The notes beneath the pieces were generated by a model, which saw nothing but the letters and a program-made list of their open reading frames with translations, searched no databases and was not told where the DNA came from. A DNA stretch of 437 nt from Escherichia coli (GTDB taxonomy: Bacteria; Pseudomonadota; Gammaproteobacteria; Enterobacterales; Enterobacteriaceae): the NCBI RefSeq assembly GCF_003334765.1, contig NZ_QOWT01000123.1; one strand, 5' to 3'. A program made the translations under genes and the position numbers. Of the stretch, positions 1 through 437 are shown in pieces; the first letter of the stretch is position 1; each line of letters starts with the position of its first letter.

Positions 1-437
1 AACAGGTCGTGATGCTTACCGAAGAACTGCTGCCTTATCCGCATAATCCGGCAAGCATTGAGCAAGATCAGGTTGATCTGATCGTCAAAGTTGATCGCGT
101 TGGCGATGCTGCAAAAATCGGCGCTGGTGCTACCCGTATGACCACTAACCCGCGCGAACTGCTTATTGCCCGTAGCGCTGCGGATGTGATTGTTAACTCT
201 GGCTACTTCAAAGAAGGTTTCTCCATGCAGACCGGCACCGGCGGCGCTTCGCTGGCGGTAACCCGTTTCCTGGAAGACAAAATGCGTAGCCGCGATATTC
301 GCGCCGACTTCGCCCTCGGCGGTATTACCGCAACGATGGTTGATCTGCACGAAAAAGGTTTGATCCGCAAACTGCTGGATGTGCAGAGCTTTGACAGCCA
401 TGCTGCGCAATCGCTGGCCCGTAACCCCAATCACATC
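1..437 (+). CDS. citF: Citrate lyase alpha subunit (citrate CoA-transferase, EC 2.8.3.10), internal fragment truncated at both window edges; codon phase begins at nt 3
   Basis: Seen in sequence: the + strand frame starting at nt 3 is open for all 145 codons to nt 437, while the other two + frames hit stops within the first 50 nt (TGA at 8-10, TAA at 44-46). Codon choice is typical of E. coli-like coding DNA (CTG Leu, CCG Pro, CGT/CGC Arg, GGC/GGT Gly, AAA Lys, GAA Glu). Established knowledge, recalled and not searched: the translation, including the segment GFSMQTGTGGASLAVTRFLEDKMRSRDIRADFALGGITATMVDLHEKGLIRKLLDVQSFDSHAAQSLARNPNHI, corresponds to the middle of the ~510-aa E. coli CitF. No start or stop codon lies in the window, so the true gene boundaries are outside it. 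Confidence 0.85.

Follow-up and report, generated by a model that had tools for sequence, protein, structure and literature searches.

In citrate lyase, CitF exchanges the acetyl group carried on the prosthetic-group thiol of CitD for citrate, giving citryl-ACP and acetate, and the citryl-ACP is then split by CitE, which yields oxaloacetate and restores acetyl-ACP; activation of the carrier protein and synthesis of its prosthetic group fall to CitC, CitX and CitG, and CitT is a citrate/succinate exchanger. The genes for anaerobic citrate fermentation, citCDEFXGT, which together account for holo-citrate lyase and the citrate carrier, are described in passages of PMC3694859 as being regulated by the CitA/CitB two-component system, and activation by CitB is given there as dependent on both citrate and anaerobiosis, with reference to Yamamoto et al. 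2008, 2009. The same operon also holds a reported overlapping gene, nog1, which lies antisense within citC of E. coli O157:H7 (PMC4683798) and which appears as a verified antisense gene in the relevant passages of PMC4683798 and PMC7457138. The main text of an E. coli overlapping-gene survey likewise places nog1/citC among its verified examples (10.1101/2020.11.18.388249), and PMC7457138, in which Mir et al. 2012 is cited on this point, discusses the excess of long antisense ORFs.

The stretch analysed here, referred to as the window, is 437 nucleotides of DNA from Escherichia coli and, judged from its sequence, it is almost certainly an ordinary internal piece of citF, the gene for the citrate lyase alpha subunit, taken from the central third of that gene. 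The whole window (1..437, plus strand) lies inside citF at gene nt 596-1032 of 1533, an offset read from the Nissle 1917 genome, and it is 100% identical at the DNA level to the annotated citF of Nissle 1917 and of many other E. coli chromosomes, in keeping with the near-full identity to enterobacterial citF that had been predicted from the sequence by an earlier note. Window nt 1-2 complete citF codon 199, codon 200 begins at nt 3 and codon 344 ends with nt 437, in a gene of 510 codons. The frame at 3..437 on the plus strand thus encodes CitF residues 200-344 as 145 codons without a stop, an assignment that draws on the translation, on Pfam and NCBIfam matches, on homologues in the PDB and on the pattern of variation across codon positions; the remaining two plus-strand frames contain 6 and 11 stops. 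The earlier note had described a single uninterrupted frame running from nt 3, and those 145 codons are indeed open, but the frame is not the only one, as a minus-strand frame, the one in codon register with citF, likewise has no stop over all 437 nt.

Family searches with the translation place it firmly within CitF. The Pfam model CitF (PF04223) covers all of it, with residues 1-145 aligned to model positions 158-302 of 466 (E 5.8e-83), and the citF equivalog TIGR01584, which is the sole NCBIfam model to match the window translation, is aligned over model positions 181-325 of 492 (E 8.7e-72). The score of the window on TIGR01584, 242 bits, falls below the full-length cutoff of 501.45 because the window is only a fragment; the full-length protein of 510 aa reaches 815.2 bits when taken from Nissle, which is identical over the window, and also 815 bits when taken from a second, island-borne copy in E. 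coli strain ES1 that is described below. The placement inside citF proposed from the letters alone is therefore borne out by the match over all 145 residues, by the TIGR01584 match and by the full-length score.

Two structures deposited as citrate lyase alpha chain align with the window protein without gaps: 1xr4_A, with 72.9% identity over residues 200-343 (E 6.6e-62), and 2hj0_A, with 61.3% identity over residues 202-343 (E 4.3e-48). The former is the putative citrate lyase alpha chain/citrate-ACP transferase of Salmonella Typhimurium. Both belong to the same family and are collinear with the window protein, of which they are orthologues or paralogues in other bacteria. The longest stretch shared without change by E. 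coli CitF, 1xr4 and 2hj0 in the three-way alignment is QTGTGGASLAVTRF, at CitF residues 275-288 (window 228..269, plus strand), which may be a glycine-rich loop of the CoA-transferase-like fold. In comparison with E. coli CitF itself (EC 2.8.3.10; PF04223, TIGR01584), the window is the same in DNA, protein, frame and gene position and shows no difference, comprising 145 of the 510 residues. From established biochemistry and from passages of PMC3694859, the encoded protein would act as a citrate CoA-transferase, or acetyl-ACP:citrate ACP-transferase (EC 2.8.3.10). The gene, its function and its context are all already known and no novel system is present, as the earlier note had also concluded; the window belongs with the textbook metabolic genes of the E. 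coli core, and in itself it is of very little consequence.

The surroundings of citF were read in two genomes, Nissle and the K-12 derivative KLY, in both of which the gene occupies the same chromosomal site. The order in each is dcuC, dpiA-dpiB on the opposite strand, citC-citD-citE-citF-citX-citG-citT and rna, such that citF has beside it citD and citE, which encode the acyl carrier and beta subunits that partner CitF, and the accessory genes citC, citX and citG. The two-component genes dpiA and dpiB, whose products are CitB and CitA under their annotation names (DpiB/DpiA for CitA/CitB), lie upstream of citC and are divergent from it. This organisation agrees with that given in passages of PMC2735749. 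An arrangement with citE upstream and citX and citG downstream had been anticipated, and this is what the extended locus of Nissle contains; the operon had been named as citCDEFXG, an order that was found, but the name omits citT and the operon is citCDEFXGT. For the window itself, operon context and the intactness of the full gene are inferred from genomes that are identical to it over the 437 nt. The control by CitA/CitB given in the earlier note is consistent with the divergent dpiBA pair next to citC and with the regulation described in passages of PMC3694859, from which the adjacent CitA/CitB (DpiB/DpiA) pair would be expected to activate the citCDEFXGT operon anaerobically in the presence of citrate; the regulation and the enzymatic mechanism are thus carried over from the literature or predicted, and the gene context is read from the genomes.

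The distribution of citF was examined by megablast of the window against complete E. coli genomes, 5422 of 5426 of which contained a match at 95.7% identity or more, every match covering at least 80% of the window. At least 99% identity was found in 1331 records, with the others at 95-99%, and each of the matches listed lies under a CDS annotated as 'citF: citrate lyase subunit alpha'. The allele of the window is found at 100% identity in strains of phylogroup-B2 type, for example Nissle 1917 and F11. Four of the 5426 genomes gave no megablast match to the window, and in these citF may be absent or deleted over this stretch. Six alleles with identities to the window of 95.7-100% were compared over the whole gene, and in all six citF is intact at 510 codons with no frameshift or premature stop; the window likewise has neither, so that the earlier statement to this effect holds for the window and extends to the full-length gene of these alleles. 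Among the six, the variable sites within the window are divided 3/2/24 between codon positions 1, 2 and 3, and CitF is therefore under purifying selection, its frame being constrained as a protein-coding one. Pairwise comparison of the alleles over the full gene gives 29-35 synonymous codon differences and just 2-4 non-synonymous ones (34 and 3, respectively, for Nissle and K-12).

Records filed as plasmids were also among the matches, and a plasmid origin for the window was considered and rejected, the true plasmid copy being only 81% identical. Of the 'plasmid' matches with identities of at least 95%, most are to records 0.1-4.9 Mb in size, which resemble pieces of chromosome filed as plasmids. 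Chromosome-sized PLSDB records carrying citF of the chromosomal type (95-97.5%) include NZ_OL790696.1 (4.80 Mb), NZ_CP134663.1 (4.90 Mb) and NZ_CP141089.1 (4.94 Mb), and the count of 'plasmid' citF is therefore inflated by such chromosome-like records. A genuine case is the conjugative IncHI1A E. coli plasmid NZ_LR890350.1, in which a block of dpiAB-citCDEFXGT-rna...rnk-uspG (L007 3421-16970), 81% identical to the window, adjoins IS26 and IS66; this block appears to be a captured chromosomal segment from another enterobacterium, and a plasmid-borne cit block of this 81% type was found in only 2 of the 5426 E. coli genomes. A further record, Lelliottia amnigena NZ_CP077332.1, has citX annotated as three fragments of 144, 189 and 123 nt (L011 2436-2968), downstream of a citF-like match that carries no annotated CDS, which suggests that the cit cluster in this record is degraded or error-ridden.

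Beyond one match per genome, the megablast of E. coli genomes returned 45 extra places matching the window, and these led to E. coli ES1 (NZ_CP133856.1), in which a second intact citCDEFXG lies within an IS-flanked genomic island (L012 14092-24978). The copy in ES1 that is 100% identical to the window, at L012 20001-20437, is in this island rather than at the canonical locus. The island is ordered as a GntR-family regulator, an amidohydrolase-family protein, an MFS transporter, citCDEFXG and, directly after it, a second acnB, downstream of which are an Ag43 autotransporter, an antirestriction protein and radC, all typical island cargo. The best NCBIfam match of the amidohydrolase-family protein is 4-sulfomuconolactone hydrolase, at a score below the cutoff of that model. 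Neither dpiAB nor citT was found near the island cit copy. The island block and the canonical locus align at about 98% over 5207 bp, with citC and citG as the exact limits, and 35 of the 5426 complete genomes (~0.6%) have the citG-acnB junction. None of the titles listed by a literature search appeared to describe a citCDEFXG-acnB island module; a mobile duplicate of this kind may be of interest to research on tricarboxylate metabolism and on metabolic modules borne by islands.

The existence of the ES1 copy raises the question of which locus the window came from. Were it derived from an island citCDEFXG next to a second acnB, it would have no CitA/CitB or citT locally, and such an origin can be argued from the perfect identity of the ES1 island copy to the window and from an island block that is about 98% identical to the canonical locus over its 5207 bp and recurs, with its junction, in 35 genomes. 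However, these 35 junction genomes and the 45 extra places in total have to be set against the 1331 records with at least 99% identity to the window, and the canonical locus is roughly 30-40 times likelier than the island as the origin; we thus consider the island origin very unlikely. It would also leave the identification untouched, as the island citF is intact (510 codons, 815 bits on TIGR01584) and the window is citF under either origin. A different doubt is that citF in the genome from which the window came might be a pseudogene, damaged somewhere outside the 437 nt. This can be given hardly any credence: a citF CDS is annotated over every match listed, the six alleles and the island copy are all intact at 510 codons and the window itself shows neither a stop nor a frameshift. 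An internal piece of an intact citF at the canonical locus is the reading kept here.

The open frame on the other strand calls for a fuller comparison. In the six-frame stop count, the antisense frame that shares the codon register of citF has no stop across the window (1..437, minus strand), and in the full gene it extends to an ATG-initiated ORF of 464 aa (L001 6580..7974, minus strand), covering ~90% of citF, which is open in Nissle, in K-12 and in the ES1 island copy. A stop in this register requires a TTA, CTA or TCA codon in the sense strand; none is present among the 14 Leu and 9 Ser codons of the window, and the count is 1 of 81 Leu and Ser codons in citF as a whole and 0 of 50 in citE, which is also wholly free of in-register antisense stops. 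In twelve other local genes the codons that form antisense stops make up ~14% of Leu and ~13% of Ser codons. A null based on synonymous permutation within the window had a standard deviation of 0 and was uninformative, because the window has no TTA, CTA or TCA to permute. When Leu and Ser codons were instead redrawn at local or genome-average frequencies in 20,000 simulations, a stop-free antisense frame over the window was obtained with P = 0.02-0.03, and the run of 451 codons observed in the gene was never reached (P<5e-5); the antisense frame is therefore not a matter of chance under average codon usage.

Variation between strains gives a different picture. Of the six E. coli alleles, four have the frame interrupted, each by 2-3 extra in-register stops; the new stops fall at citF codons 31, 95, 225, 265 and 356, those at 225 and 265 corresponding to window nt 78-80 and 198-200, and all result from synonymous changes in citF. 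More distant orthologues, at 81%, 74% and 69% identity, have 9, 4 and 5 stops in this frame. Over the span of the window, 8-17 of the 145 residues of the antisense product vary between strains, against 0-1 for CitF, and counted by antisense codon position the variable sites are divided 24/2/3, the reverse of a coding pattern. The synonymous divergence of citF between Nissle and K-12, at 6.7 per 100 codons, ranks among the highest in a set of twelve neighbouring genes, and as it is not depressed relative to them, the other strand adds no constraint. As for codon choice, citE and citF are depleted in AGA, ATA, CGA and ACA in addition to TTA, CTA and TCA, and are enriched in TCC and CTG. Searches of NCBIfam and Pfam with the 464-aa product found no family, even when the thresholds were relaxed.

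Whether this ORF could be a real overlapping gene, analogous to nog1 within citC, has to be judged from both sets of observations. A stop-free frame over the full window, the 464-aa ATG ORF in Nissle, K-12 and the ES1 island, a run length that the codon redraws never gave and the report of a verified antisense gene in the same operon could all be read in its favour. However, the frame is unconserved both within E. coli and among orthologues, its product varies where CitF hardly does, the synonymous sites of citF are as free as those of its neighbours, the scarcity of TTA, CTA and TCA belongs to a wider avoidance of rare codons in citE and citF, the product belongs to no NCBIfam or Pfam family and the main text of the overlapping-gene survey (10.1101/2020.11.18.388249) contains no mention of citF; taken together, these observations leave a real overlapping gene scarcely plausible. 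The narrower proposal, that in those lineages with an intact ORF (B2-type such as Nissle, K-12 and the island copy) it might be a young, lineage-restricted overlapping gene that is transcribed and translated, would be, on the present analysis, every bit as far-fetched, though if it were true a gene antisense to citF would parallel nog1 in the neighbouring citC. The two share an operon, a species and an antisense position, nog1 being known from passages of PMC4683798. Unlike nog1, however, the citF antisense ORF is much longer, is aligned with the codons of the sense gene, is broken in most of the alleles sampled and shows no constraint of a coding type. In character its antisense orientation is the sole point of likeness to nog1, and we do not class it as an overlapping gene. 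The better comparison is with shadow ORFs, the long stop-free antisense frames that arise in codon register on codon-biased genes, to which the citF antisense frame conforms, both citF and citE being nearly without TTA, CTA and TCA. On these sequence comparisons the 464-aa ORF is taken to be a non-functional shadow ORF, a passive by-product of codon bias, because of the breakage of the frame, the variability of its product, the unconstrained synonymous sites and the general avoidance of rare codons. It may serve as a worked example of an antisense ORF which reaches P<5e-5 under a naive redraw null and yet is dismissed by a simple comparison of alleles.

The composition of the window is that of its neighbourhood. 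Its GC is 0.542 and its GC3 0.572, with a GC3 of 0.60 for the whole of citF and 0.47-0.63 for twelve neighbouring genes. Across citE and citF, CTG accounts for 57 of 78 Leu codons (73%), and AGA, ATA and CTA are absent, a pattern that matches the major-codon preference of E. coli. Codon usage had been described by the earlier note as native rather than acquired, and indirect support for this comes from the GC3 values, from the codon counts and from the near-universal presence of the gene at a fixed chromosomal site. No Rfam match to a structured RNA was found at E<=1 on either strand of the window, which also contains no inverted repeats and no promoter- or terminator-like sites (0.3 sites of these two kinds would be expected by chance). 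A second antisense ORF, TTG-initiated and of 75 aa (203..430, minus strand), appears in the ORF listing in a frame other than the codon register; it was set aside as being at chance level, since it is shorter than the median longest antisense open run of 86 aa in 437-nt tiles of 13 neighbouring genes. The sole repeat family in the window is an imperfect direct repeat of 20 nt on the plus strand, with copies at 71..90 and 338..357 that are 80% identical and encode VDLIVK and VDLHEK, respectively; short families of two copies are often chance matches, and we judge this one to be chance or a coincidence at the level of the peptide.
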